A DNA stretch of 64,000 nt from Scyliorhinus canicula (Eukaryota). Shown here piece after piece: positions 9,907 through 60,716 of this stretch. The translations under genes were made by a program, and so were the position numbers. The notes beneath the pieces are model-generated. The model had not been told where the DNA came from, did no database searches, and saw only the letters and a program-made list of their open reading frames with translations. How positions within the stretch are numbered: the first letter of the stretch is position 1; the number at the start of each line of letters is the position of its first letter. Location of the stretch: the NCBI RefSeq assembly GCF_902713615.1, contig NC_052152.1, forward strand, positions 85,821,228-85,885,227, given 5' to 3'.

Positions 9907-10829
9907 TGTTGCTAATTTGCAAAGTGTGCGTTACACTTAATTGCTCTGTTTTATAATCTTTGCTCTAGAGTCGCCAGGTATCTTTATGATACCACCACGA
10001 GGTTCAAGTTCAAGTGCTGATCAATTACTCAATACACCAGTTAGTAAGGTTCAAATCAAAACACATTTATTATATACACAGTCAATCGCTACTCATGCAT
10101 AAAATGCTACTCACTAGACTATCTCTAACACTAAAAGGCCAATACTTAGCTTTGGAAACTGGCCCACCAGGTCAGGGGAGCAAATGGCCTTTTGTTCGAT
10201 TCTGAGTCTGCAGGCTTCCAGCTGATATGGACTAATGGTTAGGGGCGCCTATCTTGGAGCGTGCGTTGACTGGACACTTACTTGGTTGGTGCAGCTGCTA
10301 GGCAAGTCTCTCCGAGTTGAGAGTCACGGTCAAGAGTTCTTTGAGAGCTGCCAAGAAGCTGTTAGGCCGGTCTCTCCTCGCTGAGAGCCAAGTGCCAAGA
10401 AGATCAAACTGAACTTGGGGACTCTATTTTATAGTCCCCAGGGGCTTCGCACCCTTGTGGGCAGATCCCGTACCTGGTTCCAATTGATTGGACTATGTTC
10501 CAATCAATTGATTTGATTTCCCCAATACTGGTGCTGTTCCCTGATCGCTGGGTGGTTCCTATATGTCCGTTGGCCTTCCTTTGTCTTGGCTCCCGCTGGC
10601 GCCGAGGAGTCTGGCTTGGCCTCGATTATCTTAAATGTTTCCAATTGTTCCGGGGGATCGCTCATCAATATGTAGATGGTTGTTAGTTTCAGTGCTGTCT
10701 GGGTTTCTGCAAGTTCTAATATTCAGGAGATTTTGTACCTGCTTGTTTTCCTGCGTTTGGCCATTTCTCCCTGCATTCTTAGCAGATCTCCATTTTAAAG
10801 TCGGGAAGTGGCCAACCCAGGTGGCTACA
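9907..10829 (-). repeat. 3' LTR (923 bp)
   Basis: Direct repeat of 18723-19555. On the minus strand: TATAAAA at 10433-10427, AATAAA at 10071-10066 and a CCAAT-containing inverted repeat at about 10481-10510. Confidence 0.95.
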
Positions 10830-10840
10830 CTCCCTCCTTG
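10830..10840 (-). promoter_or_regulatory. Polypurine tract
   Basis: Minus-strand AAGGAGGGAG abuts the TG start of the 3' LTR. Confidence 0.85.
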
Positions 10841-11214
10841 TGATCCCTAACACGAAGCGTGAAGGATCACATAACTGCGTCGTCTTCATTCCCTGACCAA
10901 GAGAGCACTCTTCCTTGGCCTCTACACTGATTATAACTATGCAAGAAAATTTTAACTGACAATTCTAAGTGGCGCTATGTCATAAAAGGGACATGCATTA
11001 CAAAACAAGAACTGGAACCTCTAACTATCCTCAATAAACTACTCTCACTTAAATCATCCAAACATACTAACTTCCTAACAGTACAAAAATAATAGCAGCG
11101 TTCACATTTTCCTCTGGCTTGGCGGTCAAGCACAGAGTTTTACAATCTTACAGTCATGAACGAAACACATTTCTTTATTTACAAATGACGCACAAACAAA
11201 ACGAAAGTTCTTTA

Positions 11215-11689
11215 TTACATCTCAATGGGTTTGGGGGCCTGGTGGAAACCGAAAATAGGAGATCTCATCCTGTATACCGTGGTGCGAGAGCGGTAGGCTC
11301 TCCTTCGCCATTTCATCATGTGAATAGTCTGCACGATGCTGCAGAGTATCGCCAATGCTAGAAGGGATTCAATTACATATGAGAAGGAGTACCATGTTAT
11401 AAACCTATCACACCATGATGGTGTGTTGTTACTTGTCACTGGGCTCTGGGTGCTATTGGGAAGTGAATCATTAATGGCCGGGGGGGGTTGGGGTGAGGGG
11501 GTTCGCGTTCACGCGCAACCGAATACAAATCATAACGATAACGAAAAACACGAAGGATGTCTTCATTGTTGTCTTCTTCTCTTCTCTTCTCTTCCTTTTC
11601 TTCTCTTCTCTCTTCCTGGAGCTTCTGGAATTCTGTGGATCAAGCATAGTTTCTGTTACTATCTTGCTTAATACCTTGTATGTTAGCAT
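11215..11689 (-). pseudogene. Small type-I membrane glycoprotein in the env position (one frameshift in a C8 run)
   Basis: ORFs 11471-11689 and 11215-11439 join by removing one C at about 11480-11487. Product: basic leader, signal peptide MKTSFVFFVIVMICIRLRVNA, short ectodomain with NDS/NST/NNT sequons, TM YVIESLLALAILCSIVQTI, polybasic KWRRRAYRSR tail. Confidence 0.7.
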
Positions 11690-12450
11690 GTCTGTCCTTT
11701 AGTGCTAATTTCCCTTTATAATTGGTCACCATCTGTGACTCCCTCATTTAAAAAAACAAAACAAATTTCAGGACAAGACACACTTAAAAATACTGAAACA
11801 GTGCGAGCCGTCTCGCAGCCTGTGCGATTTACCATCCAAATGTTTGAGGATGTAAATAGCAGGAGGGGTGGCAACTGAAGGGTCACCTGAAAACAAAACA
11901 AAACTTTTTGAACCAGAGTGCTGAAATGAGGTGCGTATGAGCCGCGACGGGTAAGAGTTGGATGGAATCCCCGGGTAGGGCATGCTGTGCTGTACCCGAG
12001 CTTAGCTGACCAGAGGGAGGGGTGCTCAGACAGGGCGGGAACCACTGCCGTTTCTCCACTGCCTGAGTAACCGATAAGAACGGGCAAGAATGTAGTCATC
12101 GTGGGGGGTTGCTGTAAAGGTTCTACTATCAAACCAGAAGAGCAGTTATGAACAGGGTTCTGGCAAGCTCTCAGTGGTGTCTGCTGAGAAGTGGATCCTC
12201 AAATCAGAAGAGCAGTTACGAATAGGGATCGGGCAAGCTCTCAGCGGTTTCAGCTGATAAGCATGCCGGCAAGTTTTCAAAGGTTTCTGCGGACAAATGT
12301 GGCGTGTGGCCGTAGAAGCGGTTTAAACTGAAACAAAGAACATTTGACAAACATAAACAAACAAACATGCAATGAATATCGTGCAGGTTCCATCAGAAAG
12401 GACACCGATTCTCTCTCAAGCGGTTCCTTTTTAAAACATCATCTGGACAC

Positions 12451-15400
12451 TCAGTTATCTGTTGCGAACAGGGTCGCAAAGGGATTCTCGTTTTGGGAGT
12501 CAGACTCAACGTCATCATCTTCTCCCGGATGCCATACTCTTGAATGAATGAGAGTTGCTAAAGCTGCATGGTGTGACCTAGGGTCCATCGCGTCGTTCCG
12601 GATGAGCCTGAACAAATTGTCACGGTGCCAAACAGTCGTGTCTAATTCTGTGGGAACGGAGTTGGGGTTGTCATCGTAGGGCGGTGGTCTTGGGCGAGGG
12701 TTGTTAAGGAATGTGATCAGGAAGGGATCACTCGAGTTGTGGTCAGAGTCGCTGGGAGTGGGGCCTGTTGCATGGGGATAGTAGGAAGGTGTGCTGTCGC
12801 TGAAGTCTGTGTCACAGTCACTGTCTCTGCTGCTGCTGCTTGTGGGCGTTCTGGGGTGGATTCTGGAGTTAGGGGGCGGAGTCGAGGTCGAGTCCGTGGA
12901 TGGGTCGGTCATGCTGGGGGAGGCTAGGGATACGTTTCTTGTGGGCGGGTCGTGGTCTGCTGCGTCGAGCATGACGTGGTGTGCGTGGTTAGACTGCGAG
13001 CCATATGCCTTGAGCTGGTTTATATGAAACCATGCAGTCTTTCCATTGGGGTATTTAATCTTAAACTGAGGGGCTTACTTTGTCCGCAATCGAATACGGA
13101 CCCGAATACTTGGATGACAGGAATGTGCTGGGGTTGTAAATGGAGAGCATAACCTGCTGTCCTACATCAAACTCAGTTGCATGCACTGTCTTGTCGGAAC
13201 AGGCCTTTCTCTGTTTCTTCCTGGTGCCTAGTTTTACTGCGGCTGCTAGCTGAGCCGTTTTAACATTCTCTACTAACTGTTTCACTGCGTTCTCGTGGGT
13301 GAGGGCCGTCACTTCGGGGCTGGTCAAGTCAAGTCCTAATAAAAATTCTGTGCCTTTCATGGGGCGTCCGGTCATGAGAGTATGTGGGGTGTATCCTGTG
13401 GACGTGGATACAGTGTTACGCAAAAACATTAATGCAAAAGGGAGGACTGAATCCCAAGTGGTGTTGTTTTGTTGGACCATTTTTCTGAGAGTTGCTTTTA
13501 GGGTCCGTTTCATTCGTTCCACAATACCACTTGACTGGGGGTGGTATGCGATATGGAATTTTTGGGTGATGCCAAATATCGTGAGGACGTTCTTCATGAC
13601 ATGACCCGTAAAATGGGAACCTTGGTCGGATTCAATGCTGCGGTGGAGTCCCCATCTCGTAAAGATGTGGTGGGTTAAAACCTTAGCTGTAGTCTTTGCC
13701 GTGTTGTCCTGGATGGGAATGCCTCTACCCATTTCGTAAATGTGTCTATAACTACCAACACATACTTGTAACTATTCCTGCAAGGGGACAGTGGTCCTAT
13801 AAAATCAATCTGGAGGTTAGTCCAGGGGCCATCACGGGGTTGGTGTGGCTAAGCTGAGCTTTTTTCGCATGTCTGTCCAGATTGTTTTGGGCACAGATAA
13901 GGCAATTCTCAACATAGTGGGCAATGTCTTCCTTTAAATTCGGCCACCAACAGAGCTGCCTGAGGTGGGCTGTAGTGGGATCAATTCCTTGATGCCCATG
14001 ATTATCGTGAAACAAACACATAAGATGATTCCTGTCCTGTTCAGGAACCACATAAAGGGTGTCTTTTAGGATCACGCCGTCATGTGTGGTCAGTGCATAT
14101 TTAAACTTATCGTATGGGGCTGGGAATTTTCCTTTTAAAATCTCCCTGAGATTACTGTCTTGCTTCTGGGCCTGCACTAAATCTTCGATATTTGACTGCG
14201 AGACCTGAACTGCGTTCACTGGGGCGCTTTCGGGGGGGGTTCCAAAAATGACCATGCCTGGAGCCTGTTTTAGCTAGTGCGTCAGCTTTTACATTTCCAG
14301 GTGGGGGGAAGAACGGTGGTGACTTCGTACTTTAATAATACCAAATATCCTGTCCTGTGCTTTGCCTAAAATGTGGCGGAGCAATAGGGCTGAAGGGAGG
14401 GGTTTATCGTCCGCGGAAACAAATCCTCTTGCTTTCCACAGGGGTAGGAATTCTGTAAGGCTGTTGCAGACATAGAGGCTGTCCGAGTATATGTCTGCTG
14501 GGCTGGGGAAGGAATCTGGGTGATCTACGATATATGCAATGGCTGCCAGTTCTGCCGCCTGCGCGCCTAATTGTCCTGGCAGTTTTAATGAGATTTCTTC
14601 TAGGGCGCGTCCCTGCGCGTCCTCAAGATAGATGCCGCATCCTGTAATGCGTTTCCCGTCTAATATAGTGGAAGAACCATCCACGTATATCCTTAGGGGT
14701 GCGCACGTGTCTGTGTGCTGGGGGCTCTGGGGTGAACTACCTATCTTTCTGGGGGGTGTTTTCGCGATAAAGGGGCCTGTGTTGTGGTGTGGTGAGATGA
14801 TTTCACATTCATGGGGGGTGCCTGGGTACTGGAGGTTGTCGACTAGGAAAGTGTGGGTCTTGGTCCTTTTTACAGTGACGTCCCGTCCCTGCAAAAGAAG
14901 GGTCCATCTGGCTGCTCGGATCTGGCTAACTGTACCGTCCTTTAGTCATCTGTCTAGTAAAAGTTGTGTGGGGGTGTGTTCCGTGAGGATTGTGATGGGG
15001 TTTAGTCCGGTTATATAAGAAAAATATTGAACTGCTCAGAAAACTGCGAGCAGGTGCCTTTCACAGGCAGAAAATCCCTGCTCCACAGGATCTAAAACTC
15101 TGGAGGCATAAGCCACGGGTCTTAACTGTTCGTGCCGTTCCTGGAGGAGCAAGGCTGAAAGGGTGCGGTCTGTGCTAGCTACCTCTATAGCATAGGGGGA
15201 AAGCGGGTCTGGAACCTATAGTGCGGGGGCTGCAATAAGGGATCTTTTCAAAGCATCCACAGCATCCGTATGCTGCGGAAGCCATTCCCAAGGGGCTCCT
15301 TTCTTTAGAAGGTCTGAGAGGGGTGCTGCTTTGGTGGCGAAACCATCTATATGGTTTCGGCAGTAGCCAACCAGTCCTAAAAACGACCGGAGGGCTGAAA

Positions 15401-16674
15401 CATTCTGGGGAAGGGGCAATTTGACAATTGTGTCAATCCTTTTGTGCTCGATCTCGCATTTATCATGCGTGATAATCGTTCCCAAATATACCACTTTGTT
15501 TTCCAAACTTTGGGCCTTCTTGGGGTTCACTTTACATCCAATTTGCTGTAGGAGTTCTAGGCACTCTGACAGAAGCGCGATGTGATCTGCCTTGGTGTCT
15601 GTCTGCAGTAACAGGTCGTCTATGTACTGGGCCAGACATTCGGGGCGAGAAAATTTTGATAAACCATTTGCCAGTTGTCGGTGGAAAATGGAGGGGGAGT
15701 TGTGGAATCCTTGTGGAAGGCATGTCCACGTATATTGCCGACCTTTGAAAGTGAAGGAAAATTTGTACTGGCACGCTTTAGCCAATGGAATTGACCAGAA
15801 CCCATTACTGATGTCCAAAACTGTAAAATATCATGAGTTGAGTCCCTGTTTGAGCATGGTCTCGGGACTTGTGGCTACCGTGGGGGCTGCAGCGGGGGTG
15901 ACTTTGTTGAGTTCCCGGTAATCGATGGTCAGTCGCCATGATCCATCGGACTTTCTCACTGGCCAAATCAGGGCATTATTAGTAGAGGCTACTGATCTAA
16001 GTACGCCTTGCTCTAATAAACTATCAATTACTTTTGAGATTTCTCCCTCTGCCTCTTGGGGAAATCCATATTGCTTTTGGGGTCTAGGGTCAGGTCCTGT
16101 AATTTGAACCGAACCAGCCATCCTGCCACAGTCATGTTTATGACTTGCAAATGCTGTCCTGTTTTTCTGCAGAACTGCCCTAACCTGTTTGTCTGTGCTA
16201 ATCGTGGTCGGGTCAAACCAGAAATCGCCGACAGCGCTAATCTTATTAGCATACTCACCTACTGTGAGCGTTGCGGGGGCTCTTGCTGACTTTGCCATTT
16301 TCCAGACACATTGATTTACTGGGTCAATGACAGGTTGTGGGAGTTCATGAAATCGATGCCCAAAATATGTTCTGCTGTTTGAGGCAGGTCGACTAAAACT
16401 ATGGGGTGTTTTGTTGTAATGGTGCCAATTTGAATGGATGCAGGGGCTGTGATGTGTCCCTGCTGTGAGTAGCCTGTGAAGCCGCTGAGGGTGATGTTGC
16501 TGTAGTGGGCCACGTGTCTTTTTGGAACATGTTGGAGGAATTAATTATGGTGCGGGACCCTCCTGTGTCCCAAAGAAATTCAATGGGCTTGCCCCGTACT
16601 TTCGCTGCAATGACCGGTCGGCCGGACCTATCCCAAAGGGTGTCGCAGACCCAAGTGGGGGAGCCCGAACACCG
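12451..16674 (-). pseudogene. pol: pol: protease, RT, degenerate RNase H (tether), RNase H, integrase and a low-complexity tail; several frameshifts and stops
   Basis: PR FLWDTGGS (about 16570); RT DYRELN, DISNGFW, LPQGFHNSP, YIDD; tether PVAYASR...TEH; RNase H YVDGSS / AAELAA / YSDS / GNVKADALAK; IN HDNHGH..CLIC, IDFIGPL, SDQGSHF, GIVERM, GPY. Confidence 0.93.
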
Positions 16675-18407
16675 TCAGTCTGTTCCGTTCATGTCTGTCT
16701 GGTCTGAACGGACACTTACATTATGAATAGGTTTTGTCCTATTTCTATTCAGAGTGCCTGTCTGCTGGGCTCTCTGTGGCTTTTGTGGGGCATTGCACTC
16801 TCGAGCAAAGTGACCTAATTGTCCACAGTTGTAACACTCCTGTGGTTTCTGTGGGGGGCTGTTTCTACCTTTGTTCACCCATGCGGGGTTCTGGTGCGCT
16901 CTAACTGCTTGGATATCTGCCTCTGCCTGTGCTTCCTCGGGTTTTCTAATCGCGGGTTTATTGTGGACGGATTGCTCCCAAGCGCGGGACAACCTTTTTA
17001 AAACCCATTTTGCGTTGTGTGCTTCTTCTGAGGGGTCATAATTAGCACGAGCTCTTTGTCCTGCCTCTGTGGCATGGGAGATAAGGGTGCAGGTCCATTT
17101 GGCCATGTTTTTTGGGGTCAAATGGGCATGGGTTGAGTCACCGTAAATGGCTGTAAAATGGATCCACAGGCTTCCAGCAAACGTTGTGGGGTGTTCAGTT
17201 TTCTCCTGCCTGCACTTATTCAGGCCTTCTACTGGGTCACCTCTGTTATAACCGATCGCGTCTAGGATCGCCGTGTGCATCTCTGCAAGGGTGCCTCCTC
17301 CTACGTTCTGTGGGTCGGGAAGGGCTGCTACAACAGAAGGGTCTAAGCTTAAAACTGAGCTTCACTTGCTCACGCTCATCCAGGCCGTACATGGTCGCCT
17401 GCTGCTTAACTCTAGCAAAGAATTGGTGGGGGTCTGAGGTGGGGAGGAACAGTGTGATCTTGTTGCACGGATCGCCATAATTGGATCACGGTTAAGGGGG
17501 TTGTGTAAAGAAATTGCGCTTCTCCGTCTGATGTGACTGTGCGGTGGGTGGTGACCGGATTCATGGGTGCCTGATCTATCTGCTCTGTGGGGGGTTGGGG
17601 TGCTTTTCTCTTTTGGGGCTTTCCTTGCGCACATGTTCTCTGAACATATCTATGCGCCGTCTCATTTAGTTCTTGCCAATCAGGGCCGTCTTCTTCATCT
17701 AATTGGGATCCAAAGGTGCTTTGAAACCCACATTGAACAGAAAGCAAAGACTACAGTTCTGCAATCTGCTTCCGGCACTTTGCATGATCCACTGAGCTTT
17801 GTCTCTGCTCCATGGTGGCAGTATGGAGTGCTCTTAATGTTGCTTTTAGATCGCTGCACTGCCTTTGCAATGCCTCTACCTGTTTCTCTGTCTCTTCTCT
17901 TACCAGGACTGCACGTTGCGTGTCCTGATAGGCCTTATCGTATTGGGTTTGGAAGCTGCTCAGATGCGCCAGACAAGACTGGTGTGCCGTCTTGCCATCA
18001 TCCACCTCTCCGTCCTTTGCTGCTAACTTCCTTCTTAACTCTATATTCTCTTTCTCGATCTCACTAACATCGACTTTACTCATTCGATTCCTCTCTTCTA
18101 TCCCTTTGCGGAGCGTCCGAACGACCTCTCGCAATTGTGCCAGACAGGACACGATTGCCATCGGCTTGCGAGCTTTCCCTAAGCTTTTCTTATGGATTTC
18201 GGTCAGCTTCTCCCACCAAGTATGTCCTATACTCCCGTGACCTGTTTCCTCATTTGAACAAAAGTCACTCCAAAGGGGCCATCCCTTCTCTTTGAGGTAC
18301 TTTCTAATCTCAACTTCCCAAACGGGACACTGTCCTACTCTGTTGCTGGTCGCTGCGACCACGAATTCTTGAGGGTGCATGAGGCGTTCCATTGCCTTCA
18401 TGGCCAT
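16675..18407 (-). pseudogene. gag: gag with N-terminal coiled coil and one CCHC zinc knuckle; frameshifted
   Basis: ORFs 17751-18407 (heptad-rich, e.g. EIEKENIELRRKLAAK and VEALQRQCSDLKATL), 17412-17747 and 16675-17280 (CYNCGQLGHFAREC). Confidence 0.88.
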
Positions 18408-18694: not shown

Positions 18695-18717
18695 TCGAGT
18701 CCCGTCAGAGGTCGCCA
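18695..18717 (-). promoter_or_regulatory. Primer binding site, probably tRNA-Arg-like (imperfect)
   Basis: TGGCGACCTCTGACGGGACTCGA begins 5 nt after the 5' LTR. Its complement TCGAGTCCC...GTCGCCA resembles tRNA-Arg 3' ends. Confidence 0.65.
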
Positions 18718-18722
18718 CTAAA

Positions 18723-19555
18723 TGTTGCTAATTTGCAAAGTGTGCTTTACACTTAATTGCTCTGTTTTATAACCTTTTCTCTAGAGTCACCAGATATCTT
18801 TATGATACCACCACGAGGTTCAGGTTCAGGTGCTGCTCAATTACTCAATACACCAGTTAGTAAATTTCAAATCAAAACACATTTATTATATACACAGTCA
18901 ATCGCTACTCATGCATAAAATACTACTCACTAGACTATCTCTAACACTAAAAGGCCAATACTTAGCTTTGGAAACTGGCCCACCAGGTCAGGGGAGCAAA
19001 TGGCCTTTCGTTCGATTCTGAGTCTGCAGGCTTCCAGCTGGTATGGACTAATGGTTAGGTGCGCCTATCTCATAGCGTGCATTGACTGGACACTTACTTG
19101 GTTGGTGCAGCTGCTAGGCAAGTCTCTCCGAGTTGAGAGTCATGGTCAAGAGTTCTTTGAGAGCTGCCAAGAAGCTGTTAGGCCGGTCTCTCCTCGCTGA
19201 GAGCTAAGTGCCAAGAACTTGGGGATTCTAGTTTATAGTCCCCAGGGGCTTCGCGCCCTTGTGGGCGGACCCCATACCTGGTTCCTGTATGTCCGTTGGC
19301 CTTCCTTTGTCTTGGCTCCCGCTGGCGCCGAGGAGTCTGGCTTGGCCTCAATTATCTTAAATGTTTCCAATTGTTCCGGGGGATCGCTCATCAATATGTA
19401 GATGGTTGTTAGTTTCAGTGCTGTCTGGGTTTCTGCAAGTTCTAATATTCAGGAGATTTTGCACCTCCTTGTTTTCCTGCGTTTGGCCATTTCTCCCTGC
19501 ATTCTTAGCGGATCTCCATTTTAAAGTCGAGAAGTGGCCAACCCAGGTGGCTACA
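18723..19555 (-). repeat. 5' LTR (833 bp; 78-bp and 12-bp deletions relative to the 3' LTR)
   Basis: Direct repeat of 9907-10829, adjacent to the PBS. Confidence 0.95.
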
Positions 19556-21843: not shown

Positions 21844-24260
21844 GAACAAAGAAAAGTACAGCATAGGAACAGGCCCTTCGGCCGTCCAAGCCTGAGCTGA
21901 CCATGCTGTCCTTCGAGCCTAAAACCGTCTACACTTCCGGGGGCCATATCCATTGAAACCCATCTTATTCATGTATTTGTTGCCCCTTAAACGTCACTTT
22001 CATATCTGCTTCCACCAACTCCTCTGGCAGCGAGTTCCAGGCACCCGCTATCCTCTGTGTAAAAAAACTTCACTTGCACATCTCCTCTAAACTTTGCCTC
22101 TCACACCTTAAACCTATGTCCCCTAGTAATTGGCTCTTCCGCACTGGAAAAAAGCTTTTGACTATCTACTCTGTCCATAGCCCTCATAATCTTGGAGACT
22201 TCTATCAGGTCACCCCTTAACCTCTGTCATTCCAGTGAGAACAAACCAAGTTTATCCAACCTCTCCTCATAGCTAATGCTCTCCACACCAGGCAACATCC
22301 TGGTAAATCTCTTCTGTATCCTCTCCAAAACCTCCATATCCTTCTGGTAGTGTGGCAGCTAGAATTGAACACTATATTCCAAATATGGCCCAACCAAAGT
22401 TCTGTATAGCACCTGCATGACTTAACTATTTCTATACTCAGTGCATCGCCTGATGAAGGCAAGCATGCCATATGCTTTCTTGACTATCTTCTTGACCTGC
22501 GTTGCCACTTTCAGTGATCTGTGGTCTTGTATACCCAGATCCCTCTGCCTGTCTGTACTCTTAAGGGTTATGCCCTATATTGTATATTTCCCACTTGTAT
22601 TGCACCTTCCGAAATACATTACCTCACATTTGTCCGGATTAAACTCCATCTGTCATCTCTCGGTCCAAGTCTCCAATCGATCTATATCCTGCCATATCCT
22701 CCGACAGTCCTCATCACTATCTGCAATTCCACCAACCCTTGTGTCATCCGCAAACTTACTAATCAGACCAGATACATTTCCCTCCAAATCATTTACATAT
22801 ACTACAAACAGCAAAGATCCCAGCACTGAACCCTGTGGAACGCCACTAGTCATAGCTTCCATTCAGAAAAACACCCTTCCACTGCTACCCTCTGTCCTCT
22901 ATGACCGAGCCAGTTCTGTATCCAACTTGCCAGTTCACCTCTGATTCCATGTGACTTCACATTTTATATCAGTCTGCCATAAGGGACATTGTCCGTGTAG
23001 ACAACATCCACTGCCCTACCTTCATCAATAATCTTCATTACTTCATTGAAAAACTCGATCAAGTTAATGAGACATGACCTCCTCTTCACAAAACCATGCT
23101 ACCTCTTGCTAAAACGTCCATATGCTTCCAAATGAGAGTAAATCCTGTCTTGCAGAATCCTCTCTAATAATTTCCCTTCCACTGACGTCAGGCTCACCAC
23201 CCTGTAATTACCTGTATTATCCCTGCTACCCTTCTTTTTGTCTCTTTTTTTAAATACATTTTGAGTACCAAATTCTTTTTTTTCAAATTAAGGGGCAATT
23301 TAGCATGGCCAGTTCATCTACCCTGCACATCTTTTTGGGTTGTGGAGATGAGACCCACACAAGCATGAGGAGACTGTGCAAACTCCACATGGACAGTGAC
23401 CCAGGTCCTCGGCGCCGTGAGGCAGCGTCACTGTGCTGCTCCTTACTACCATTCTTAAACAAAGGAACAACATTAGCGATTCTCCAGTCCTCTGGGGCTG
23501 CACCTATAGCCAGTGAGGATATTAACATTTCTGTCAAGGCCTCAGCAATATCCTCCCTTGCCTCGCTCAGTATTCTGGGGTTGATCCCATCAGGCTCTGG
23601 GACTTCTCTACATTAATGCTTTTCAAGATGCCCAACACCTCTTCCTTTTTGATCTCCATGTGACCCAGACTATCTACGCATTCTTCCCCAGACTTATCAT
23701 CCACCAAGTCCTTCTCTTTGGTGAATCCTGATGGAAAGTACACATTCAGTACCTTGCCCATTTGCTCTGGCTCCACGCATAGATTCCCTCCCCTGTCCTT
23801 GACTGGGAGACCCTTTTCCTGCCTAAAGCCTTGGGATTTTCCTTAATTCACCTTCAGTGACCTCTTTTAGCCCTCCTGACTCCTTGCTTAAGTTCCTTCC
23901 TACTTTCCTTATATTTTTCATGGGCTTCGTCTGTTCTCCGCCTTCTAGCCCTTACAAATGCTTCCCTTTTTCTTTTGGACTAGGCTCACAATATCCCTCA
24001 TTGTCTAAAGTTCCCGAAACTTGCCATACTTATCCTTCTTCCTCATAGGAGCATGCCGGTCCTGAATTCCTTCTTCCTCACAGGAGCATGCTGGTCCTGA
24101 ATTCCTTCTTCCTCACAGGAGCATGCTGGTCCTGAATTCCTTCTTCCTCACAGGAGCATGCTGGTCCTGAATTCCTATCAACTGACATTTAAAAGCCTCC
24201 CACATGCCAGATGTTGATTTATCCTCAAACATCCACCCCCAATCTAGATTCTTCTGTTCC
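21844..24260 (-). mobile_element. CR1 (HER1-like) LINE, 5'-truncated and decayed; SINE fragment at about 23285-23440
   Basis: GVPQGSVLG..KFADDT (22653-22862), PEDWRIANVVPLFK (23283-23537), CR1 3' UTR near 21850. Confidence 0.92.
24034..24175. repeat. 35-bp tandem repeat, 4 copies
   Basis: CCTTCTTCCTCACAGGAGCATGCTGGTCCTGAATT starting at 24034, 24069, 24104 and 24139. Confidence 0.92.
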
Positions 24261-58385: not shown

Positions 58386-59613
<1,228 letters not shown>

Positions 59614-60611
59614 GTTTACAGGAAGGAAGGGGGAGGTACTATGCAGGAAGGAGGTGGAGGAATAGTATACAGGAAGTAATGGGGAGGGGGTAGTATACAG
59701 GAAGAAAGGGGGGTGGTGAATATAGGAAGGAGGTGGGGAGTAGTCTCAAGAAAGGAGGTGGGGTAGTATACAGGAAGGAGGTTGGGGTATAGTATACAGG
59801 AAGGAGGTTGGGGTATAGTATACAGGAAGGAGGGTGGGGTATAGTATACAGGAAGGAGGGTGGGGTATAGTATACAGGAAGGAGGGTGGGGTATAGTATA
59901 CAGGAAGGAGGGTGGGGTATAGTATACAGGAAGGAGGGTGGGGTATAGTATACAGGAAGGAGGGTGGGGTATAGTATACAGGAAGGAGGTGGGGTATAGT
60001 ATACAGGAAGGAGGTGGGGTATAGTATACAGGAAGGAGGTTGGGGTATAGTATACAGGAAGGAGGGTGGGGTATAGTATACAGGAAGGAGGGTGGGGTAT
60101 AGTATACAGGAAGGAGGGTGGGGTATAGTATACAGGAAGGAGGTGGGGTATAGTATACAGGAAGGAGGTGGGGTATAGTATACAGGAAGGAGGGTGGGGT
60201 ATAGTATACAGGAAGGAGGTGGGAAATAGTATACAGGAAGGAGGGTGGGGTATAGTATACAGGATGGAGGGTGGGGTATAGTATACAGGAAGGAGGGTGG
60301 GGTATAGTATACAGGAAGGAGGGTGGGGTATAGTATACAGGAAGGAGGGTGGGGTATAGTATACAGGAAGAAGGTGGGGGAATAGTACACAGGAAGGAGG
60401 GTGGGGTATAGTACACAGGAAGGAGGGTGGGGTATAGTACACAGGAAGGAGGGTGGGGTATAGTATACAGGAAGGAGGGTGGGGTATAGTATACAGGAAG
60501 GAGGGTGGGGTATAGTATACAGGAAGGAGGGTGGGGTATAGTATACAGGAAGGAGGGTGGGGTATAGTATACAGGAAGGAGGTTGGGGAATAGTATACAG
60601 GAAGGAGGGTG
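59614..60611. repeat. G-rich 25-26-bp minisatellite, roughly 35-38 units
   Basis: Unit AGGAAGGAGGGTGGGGTATAGTATAC; degenerate at the left, homogeneous at the right. Confidence 0.97.
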
Positions 60612-60716
60612 TCCTTCCTGTATACAGCATTCCTATATAGAATATAGGAAGTGCGAGCCAATATAAGATTTTTATTTATCTGCGCACACCTGTCAATTTT
60701 TCCGACTATAAATCTT

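Follow-up and report, generated by a model that had tools for sequence, protein, structure and literature searches.

A short gene under purifying selection at the env position of an env-less catshark retrovirus family, predicted to encode a type I membrane glycoprotein

A very abundant family of env-less endogenous retroviruses in the catshark Scyliorhinus canicula carries, at the position of env, a small open reading frame (ORF) that is under purifying selection and is not there by chance. Judged from the sequence, it would encode a type I membrane glycoprotein about 115 amino acids long. The gene is real and a property of the whole family, not an accident of the copy in which it was noticed; that copy lies in the window (the whole stretch of 64,000 nucleotides that was analysed) and is itself a frameshifted, broken member of the family. 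No description of the small ORF was found in the openly accessible papers searched, and this selected gene of an env-less vertebrate retrovirus family is apparently undescribed. We give a probability of roughly 0.4 to the reading that the family-wide glycoprotein at the env position serves in place of Env in passing capsids from cell to cell, a reading that is built on analogy with the sORF2 proteins of Drosophila retrotransposons.

The LTR element in the window (19555–9907, minus strand) is a degenerate provirus with TG...CA ends and a 4-bp target-site duplication (19559–19556 and 9906–9903). Its 5′ LTR (18723..19555), which has TG...CA ends, contains a donor-like site (19101–19092) and an AATAAA (18887–18882), and in a young copy poly(A) loose ends fall at the matching LTR position. 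The primer-binding site (PBS, 18699..18717, minus strand) reads 18717–18699 and resembles, as we take it, the 3′ end of tRNA-Arg. Then follow gag (16675..18407), which is broken in this copy, is without Gly2 and has a coiled-coil-like region and one CCHC knuckle, and pol (12451..16674; PR-RT-tether-RNase H-IN), which is broken too; despite the breaks Pfam recognises a zinc knuckle as well as protease, RT, RNase H and integrase in these frames. A constrained, non-coding region (11633..12450) separates pol from the small ORF, after which come the polypurine tract (PPT, 10830..10841) and the 3′ LTR (9907..10829), all on the minus strand. Of 805 aligned bases, 31 are mismatched between the 5′ and 3′ LTRs (the last 28 bases of the 3′ LTR lie outside the alignment), and the window copy is therefore older and degenerate.

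In young copies of the family pol is open for 1404–1411 amino acids, and gag has an in-frame stop ahead of it. The two genes are in frame over a single TGA that is followed by CGG (L071:3414–3422; window 16677–16672), a context which we presume to be consistent with read-through. The integrase C-terminus (window 12900–12640) contains, in young copies too, a long low-complexity stretch rich in S, D, P and T, and then a conserved acidic-aromatic end, and right after the pol stop several copies have an imperfect direct repeat of about 90–100 nt (L071:7767–7954; window 12268–12107). Elsewhere the window holds many SINE-like and LINE-like fragments, a 26-bp tandem array (59594–60665) and a 35-bp tandem repeat (23998–24207).

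The stretch from the pol stop (12451) to the PPT (10841–10830), about 1.6 kb long, contains no env-sized frame, as the first-pass annotation of the window had stated. It holds two overlapping minus-strand frames, of which the first begins with ATG 11566 and a hydrophobic N-terminus and stops at 11471, and the second (11508–11215) encodes an S/T/P-rich stretch, an aromatic segment, a transmembrane (TM) helix and a basic tail. The proposal that the two are one gene, split at a homopolymer run (11480..11487), is borne out by sister copies, which at 26 of 69 loci show the same layout in a single frame of 112–119 amino acids. The window copy's pieces were left unjoined in our analyses, and natural sister copies were used in place of a repaired ORF. 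Read along the minus strand, the gene consists of the start codon with a predicted signal peptide of 21 codons (11504..11566; by hydropathy and eye), the run with the frame break, which lies in a region that is recurrently broken in older copies, an S/T/P-rich and predicted disordered ectodomain (11416..11479) with a family-wide sequon at 11472, an aromatic, probably amphipathic juxtamembrane segment with a predicted TM helix (11323..11415), where the invariant WC, W-x-S, Y and E are found and which is the most constrained part, and a predicted cytoplasmic tail (11215..11322) with a polybasic patch, a conserved Tyr and an S/A-P-hydrophobic-F motif. An AATAAA (11216–11211) overlaps the stop.

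All three N-glycan sequons that had been noted are present in the window copy, but only the first is family-wide (30/30 ORFs); one other recurs in most members of the older subfamily, whereas the sequon in the middle is absent from the sister ORFs examined. A longer form of 157 amino acids starting at ATG 11689, also put forward at first, had to be given up: its frame varies among copies, young copies are without an in-frame upstream ATG, and a conserved acceptor-like site (11633) follows only downstream of ATG 11689. The 12098–11716 frame, which has a P-loop-like stretch, was not taken as coding either, since the frames differ between subfamilies and pN/pS is 0.83–0.91 in all frames of the region.

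To see how general the gene is, copies were collected from the same genome by its ORF (29), by integrase (40 of 150, of which 20 were picked for young or divergent character and 20 among the best matches) and from third-subfamily matches (20 of 150). The underlying DNA search yielded 2284 first-look candidates with 40 scored and the integrase search 50626 candidates with 150 scored, neither of which is a copy number. The small ORF was found at the env position in 40/40 copies picked by integrase alone, none of which has an env-sized frame (longest stop-free frame 219 amino acids). Of 33 copies in which it could be measured, 30 have a pol-to-PPT distance of 1466–1698 nt; among the three outliers, two are early PPT-like matches and one measures 3675. 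In the third subfamily the ORF is at the same place and has a longer ectodomain, and no env was found in the 20 copies. A full env had thus been looked for in sister copies and was present in 0/40 and 0/20, which rules out that the gene is the product of an internal env deletion specific to the window copy. The earlier idea of an env-less, retrovirus-like element that keeps a dedicated gene for a small membrane protein is upheld, the gene being both family-wide and selected.

An uninterrupted frame from start to tail is present at the 26 loci mentioned and fails at the other 43, and by group it is found in 15/17 young and 11/52 older copies. The 15 young ones include all ten copies whose pol frame is at least 1261 amino acids long; in each of these ten the small ORF is uninterrupted, in one of them with an altered tail. 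Young copies combine a small ORF of 113–118 amino acids with a gag of about 580 amino acids, the in-frame stop and the long pol, and their LTRs are 99.5–99.9% identical over the compared part. From the open gag and pol and the near-identical LTRs it follows that the family has been copying recently without env. In old copies gag and pol are as broken as the small ORF. The frame is broken across the homopolymer-run region in 18 of 42 scorable older copies; on a tree built without the run these breaks need 10 changes versus 14.1 with shuffled labels (7–13 of 500 shuffles being as low). The breaks are mostly recurrent slippage or assembly error, and their mild clustering suggests that broken templates were sometimes copied, e.g., by complementation in trans.

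Selection was analysed with a codon model on 30 natural ORFs, namely 25 of the 26 uninterrupted ones and, from the third subfamily, 5 of 8 candidates; rows with a frameshifted tail, four in number, were left out. Neutral evolution, the outcome that would have spoken against the gene, is not what was found: omega is 0.307, or 0.31 when rounded, with lnL = −3872.0 as compared with −3980.2 at omega = 1 (2ΔlnL = 216). In a control unguided by protein (25 non-independent pairs between two young subfamilies, DNA-only alignments), pN/pS is 0.24 in the coding frame; the two alternative frames of the ORF have 1.16 and 2.93, and both flanks lie at 0.78–0.91 whichever frame is read. A single pair by itself reaches a Fisher p of 4e-8. 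In the same non-independent pairs, none of the 10 gaps in the ORF breaks the frame, whereas upstream 290 of 391 gaps do so and downstream 170 of 228. It should be noted that picking uninterrupted copies strips nonsense changes and cannot produce a frame-specific excess of synonymous changes. A chance or neutral ORF is therefore ruled out by the frame-specific purifying selection and the frame-preserving indels, and a neutral remnant is hardly credible, even though the window copy is broken and the 43 loci fail the test for an uninterrupted frame, because in old copies gag and pol have decayed to the same extent.

Within the gene the juxtamembrane segment and the TM helix are most constrained (dN/dS 0.05–0.31 between groups), followed by the tail (0.10–0.32), and the signal peptide and ectodomain are least constrained, their character being kept rather than their sequence. 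Compared over one set of 13 copies, the small ORF has an omega of 0.30 and integrase one of 0.05. The pol-to-ORF region (12450–11633) diverges less between the young subfamilies (p = 0.13–0.15) than synonymous sites do (0.32–0.37) and includes a conserved short exon-like segment (11886–11833); it likely holds constrained RNA elements.

The predicted protein has a consistent anatomy. An N-terminal hydrophobic core is found in 30/30 ORFs (KD over 9 residues 1.7–3.9), where cleavage of a signal peptide is predicted by eye, and so is one internal hydrophobic stretch of 19 residues (30/30; KD 1.5–2.5), the predicted TM helix, which is followed within 15 residues by 6–8 K/R (30/30). The one invariant N-x-S/T sequon (30/30) is a predicted glycosylation site. 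Gly2 is absent in 30/30; there is no conserved CC, and the single invariant Cys lies on the predicted outside. Invariant among 17 aligned copies are the Asn of the first sequon, W-C, W-x-S, Y, E, L, I, Q-T, K-W, R-A, S and the Tyr of the tail. The hydrophobic moment (muH, calculated without a shuffled control) is 0.45–0.65 for the juxtamembrane segment and 0.28–0.42 for the tail in the older and third subfamilies.

Comparisons of structure and sequence yielded few leads. The AlphaFold model has a helix at 2–19, a disordered part and one helix at 38–90 (pLDDT 67, pTM 0.33), and Foldseek with this model against BFVD returned 0 matches at E = 0.001. Pfam gave sub-threshold matches alone, all below the curated cut-offs: TMEM156 in 15 of 17 members (best E = 0.0017), adenovirus E3A in 3 of 17 (E = 0.011) and CMV TRL10 (E = 0.22). 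In the ESM Atlas the best score is 0.88 and the feature score to influenza M2 is 0.84, both of which are leads only. Protein matches at any length were catshark gene models that hold the same exon, and nothing else.

How the ORF may be expressed was looked at in sequence and in RNA. An acceptor-like motif, after which comes a purine-rich stretch, is conserved across subfamilies 65–76 nt before the start (11633 in the window copy); in the pol-to-ORF region acceptor-like sites end at 12328, 11887 and 11633, and a donor-like site is at 11837–11827. Nine annotated catshark proteins contain the small ORF, whole or in part, as a late exon of the gene model (HEPACAM2-like, EP3 receptor, KIAA1958, a galectin-domain protein, two glycosyltransferases and others), and two of the nine join it exactly at the predicted acceptor point. 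The acceptor thus appears to trap host transcripts or gene models; being annotation models, the nine proteins are no direct proof of splicing.

The family is transcribed in sense: a young copy is covered in every one of its 30 bins by two stranded oligo-dT runs, whose reads lie mostly in sense direction, and in a single-cell run poly(A) ends lie within the LTR. Most reads come from other copies than that of the window, to which just 17 and 10 reads are at least 99% alike. None of the joints listed for RNA reads and contigs from five runs, lists that leave out a further 2 and 16, is a canonical splice joint, and the RNA depth across the ORF gives no distinct sign of a subgenomic mRNA. Depth is highest over the pol-to-ORF region (12450–11633), which may reflect cross-mapping. 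In 25 of 26 uninterrupted ORFs an AATAAA overlaps the stop, in different registers, even though the position of the stop differs between subfamilies, and in most ORFs a second AATAAA is located 15–40 nt further on. The former may act as a poly(A) signal inside the element; at this place the RNA runs list no poly(A) ends.

By its pol, which has the order PR-RT-RH-IN with tether and RNase H and an RT in the retrovirus clade, the element belongs to the Retroviridae as far as sequence can tell. The closest pols are from frogs (55–56% identity) and coelacanth (52%). An RT tree of 48 rows places the family within the retrovirus clade, beside frog and coelacanth elements (support 91/94) and separate both from gamma/epsilon-like rows and from the fish clade in which the lokiretrovirus motif is found, so that it groups with non-class-I vertebrate retroviruses; no RT relative was found among viral contigs. 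The same genome contains gamma-type env ERVs with open env frames of 563–570 amino acids that are unrelated to the family. Of 78 matches to env-bearing ERVs, 24 loci were examined, and no kinship was detected: their pol is about 30% identical to that of the family, and the small-ORF profile gives a best E of 0.89.

Among described retroviruses, the available portions of the literature on SnRV-like and clade Huo ERVs (class III-related; PMC2717909, PMC6001957, PMC8922424, PMC4422223, PMC4131045) report features that the catshark family has also, namely a non-myristoylated coiled-coil Gag with one zinc knuckle and an in-frame gag-pol stop. The likeness to SnRV is one of Gag features, as given in PMC2717909, the RT tree having no SnRV row, and the coiled coil of the catshark Gag was judged from weak Pfam hits and composition. 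An env-less SnRV-like element from a frog transcriptome is also reported in this literature. The catshark family differs in being without env but with a selected membrane ORF of 115 amino acids, which the available text of those papers does not mention. ERV-Spuma.0-Sca is, according to the accessible parts of its description, an ERV from catshark in which no Env domain was detected (PMC10699275), but its layout differs (gag 2259 nt, pol 2946 nt, third ORF 1326 nt; Table S4 of the same paper), and it is probably another family; the LTR-start motif of our family was not found in the supplements available. Lokiretroviruses, as far as the source (PMC7947760) was at hand, share tether plus RNase H and fish hosts, but identity with them was rejected by tree and motif: the catshark RT is outside the clade with the loki RT motif, and the copies have neither an F-like env (PF00523) nor room for one.

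Why should such an element keep a membrane protein? Retrotransposition in cis needs gag and pol only, as stated in the available part of the source (PMC8922424), and a selected protein of the secretory pathway therefore needs another role. The closest functional analogue is, in our view, sORF2 of the Drosophila MDG1-group LTR retrotransposons. The accessible text of the preprint (bioRxiv 10.1101/2025.03.14.642691) describes it as a short single-pass membrane protein of env-less LTR elements with an amphipathic ectodomain segment and a juxtamembrane polybasic patch; the catshark protein resembles it in its setting, its predicted single TM helix, its polybasic patch and a probably amphipathic segment. 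sORF2 is proposed to act in capsid transfer from soma to oocyte, with the limitation that fusion was not reproduced in culture. The sORF2 elements are Metaviridae, whereas the catshark element, with its tether and RNase H, is of vertebrate retrovirus lineage; sORF2 has 63–107 amino acids as compared with 112–119, and the catshark ORF is at the env position. An N-myristoylation motif, MGxxxS/T, was a criterion in the search for sORF2 and is found in 4/6 founders; the catshark protein instead has a signal-peptide-like start and an invariant sequon. No sequence similarity between the two was detected, and the preprint mentions neither "shark" nor "signal peptide".

A likeness to the reovirus FAST fusogens had been pointed out as well, and it holds for the small size (FAST 95–198 amino acids), the one TM helix, the short ectodomain and the juxtamembrane polybasic motif (3–8 basic residues in FAST, 6–8 in catshark). 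It fails in that FAST proteins have a reverse signal anchor and no signal peptide, and are unglycosylated and acylated, none of which fits the catshark protein (available portions of PMC3952855 and PMC12945298). Membership in either group, FAST or sORF2, was rejected because the start resembles a signal peptide, the sequon is invariant and Gly2 or a myristoyl motif is missing (30/30).

The reading that the protein substitutes for Env draws on the sORF2 analogy and on the gene's place at the env position; a Gag without myristoylation and the constraint seen in TM helix and tail favour it too. The protein would be made from an env-type mRNA in which splicing links the LTR donor with the acceptor at 11633, its signal peptide would be cleaved and the chain glycosylated in the ER, and the polybasic patch would export it to the plasma membrane. 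There the conserved tail might bind the non-myristoylated Gag or the actin machinery, the amphipathic juxtamembrane helix and the TM helix would do the membrane work, and capsids would pass at cell contacts, e.g., from gonadal soma to germ cell, as proposed for sORF2. Against this speak the missing FAST/sORF2 hallmarks, the lack of a canonical joint among those listed in RNA, and an omega of 0.3 that is looser than that of integrase. The glycosylated ectodomain, moreover, would tend to hold membranes apart, and if some broken templates were copied, this argues against a strict need in cis. More doubtful is the further-reaching proposal that a vertebrate retroviral lineage has swapped Env for a miniature type I glycoprotein moving capsids from soma to germline, which would be a second, independent sORF2 strategy inside the Retroviridae and a new architecture of a minimal fusogen or transfer factor.

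An unlikely explanation, to be taken seriously nevertheless, is that the protein is an accessory one that acts on the host: a small glycoprotein of the surface or secretory pathway that binds a restriction or immune factor and removes it via TM helix and tail, in the manner of Vpu or adenovirus E3, or that blocks superinfection. The type I layout with variable ectodomain and conserved TM and tail would suit such a role, the weak Pfam look-alikes are small viral glycoproteins (E3A, TRL10), action in trans would agree with some copying of broken templates, and SnRV-type retroviruses carry accessory ORFs, as the accessible part of the source describes (PMC2717909). But every family match is below the curated cut-offs, the gene sits at the env position behind an env acceptor, and an element confined to germ cells would have little need to fight surface immunity.

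Unlikely to a higher degree is a minimal remnant of a lost env, made of leader and membrane anchor with tail, that would be an internal anchor for assembly of capsids or their budding into ER or vesicles while the element retrotransposes within the cell, with no cell-to-cell step. Indeed, Env-like traits are present: the place after pol, the acceptor motif, and a predicted signal peptide and TM anchor, which with the W-rich juxtamembrane segment resemble the two ends of an Env. The gamma-type Envs of the genome end, by eye, in a loosely similar W-rich plus TM stretch, and the Gag is without the Gly for myristoylation. However, no env-bearing relative was found, the env-ERV loci being as distant in pol and profile as given above and all protein matches being catshark models with the same exon, and the invariant sequon and the polybasic, export-type patch would point to the surface. 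No frame or Pfam match with gamma-type or F-like Env features (a length of several hundred residues, furin site, fusion peptide, heptad repeats, CX6CC) was found. An origin from the ends of env and a role in cell-to-cell transfer are mutually compatible. Very improbable is a viroporin or membrane-remodelling oligomer like M2, disulfide-linked through the invariant Cys: the small single-pass build, this Cys, a Glu that never varies where the TM helix begins and a probably amphipathic helix would allow it, but the lead to influenza M2 in the Atlas is a score below 0.9 with 140 shared features, and there is no fold match.

Env-less ERVs are usually taken to copy within one cell by gag and pol alone. 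The catshark family, high in copy number and recently active, keeps a membrane protein under purifying selection in several subfamilies and in two catshark species, and "env-less" can thus hide a third, essential-looking gene that is too short for annotation pipelines. If the protein does transfer capsids, envelope-independent infectivity would reach from flies to vertebrate retroviruses, with consequences for our picture of the loss and gain of env. Should it be an accessory factor instead, it would indicate that cartilaginous fish have a restriction or immune target for it. And since all this comes down to a single short gene, it is directly testable.
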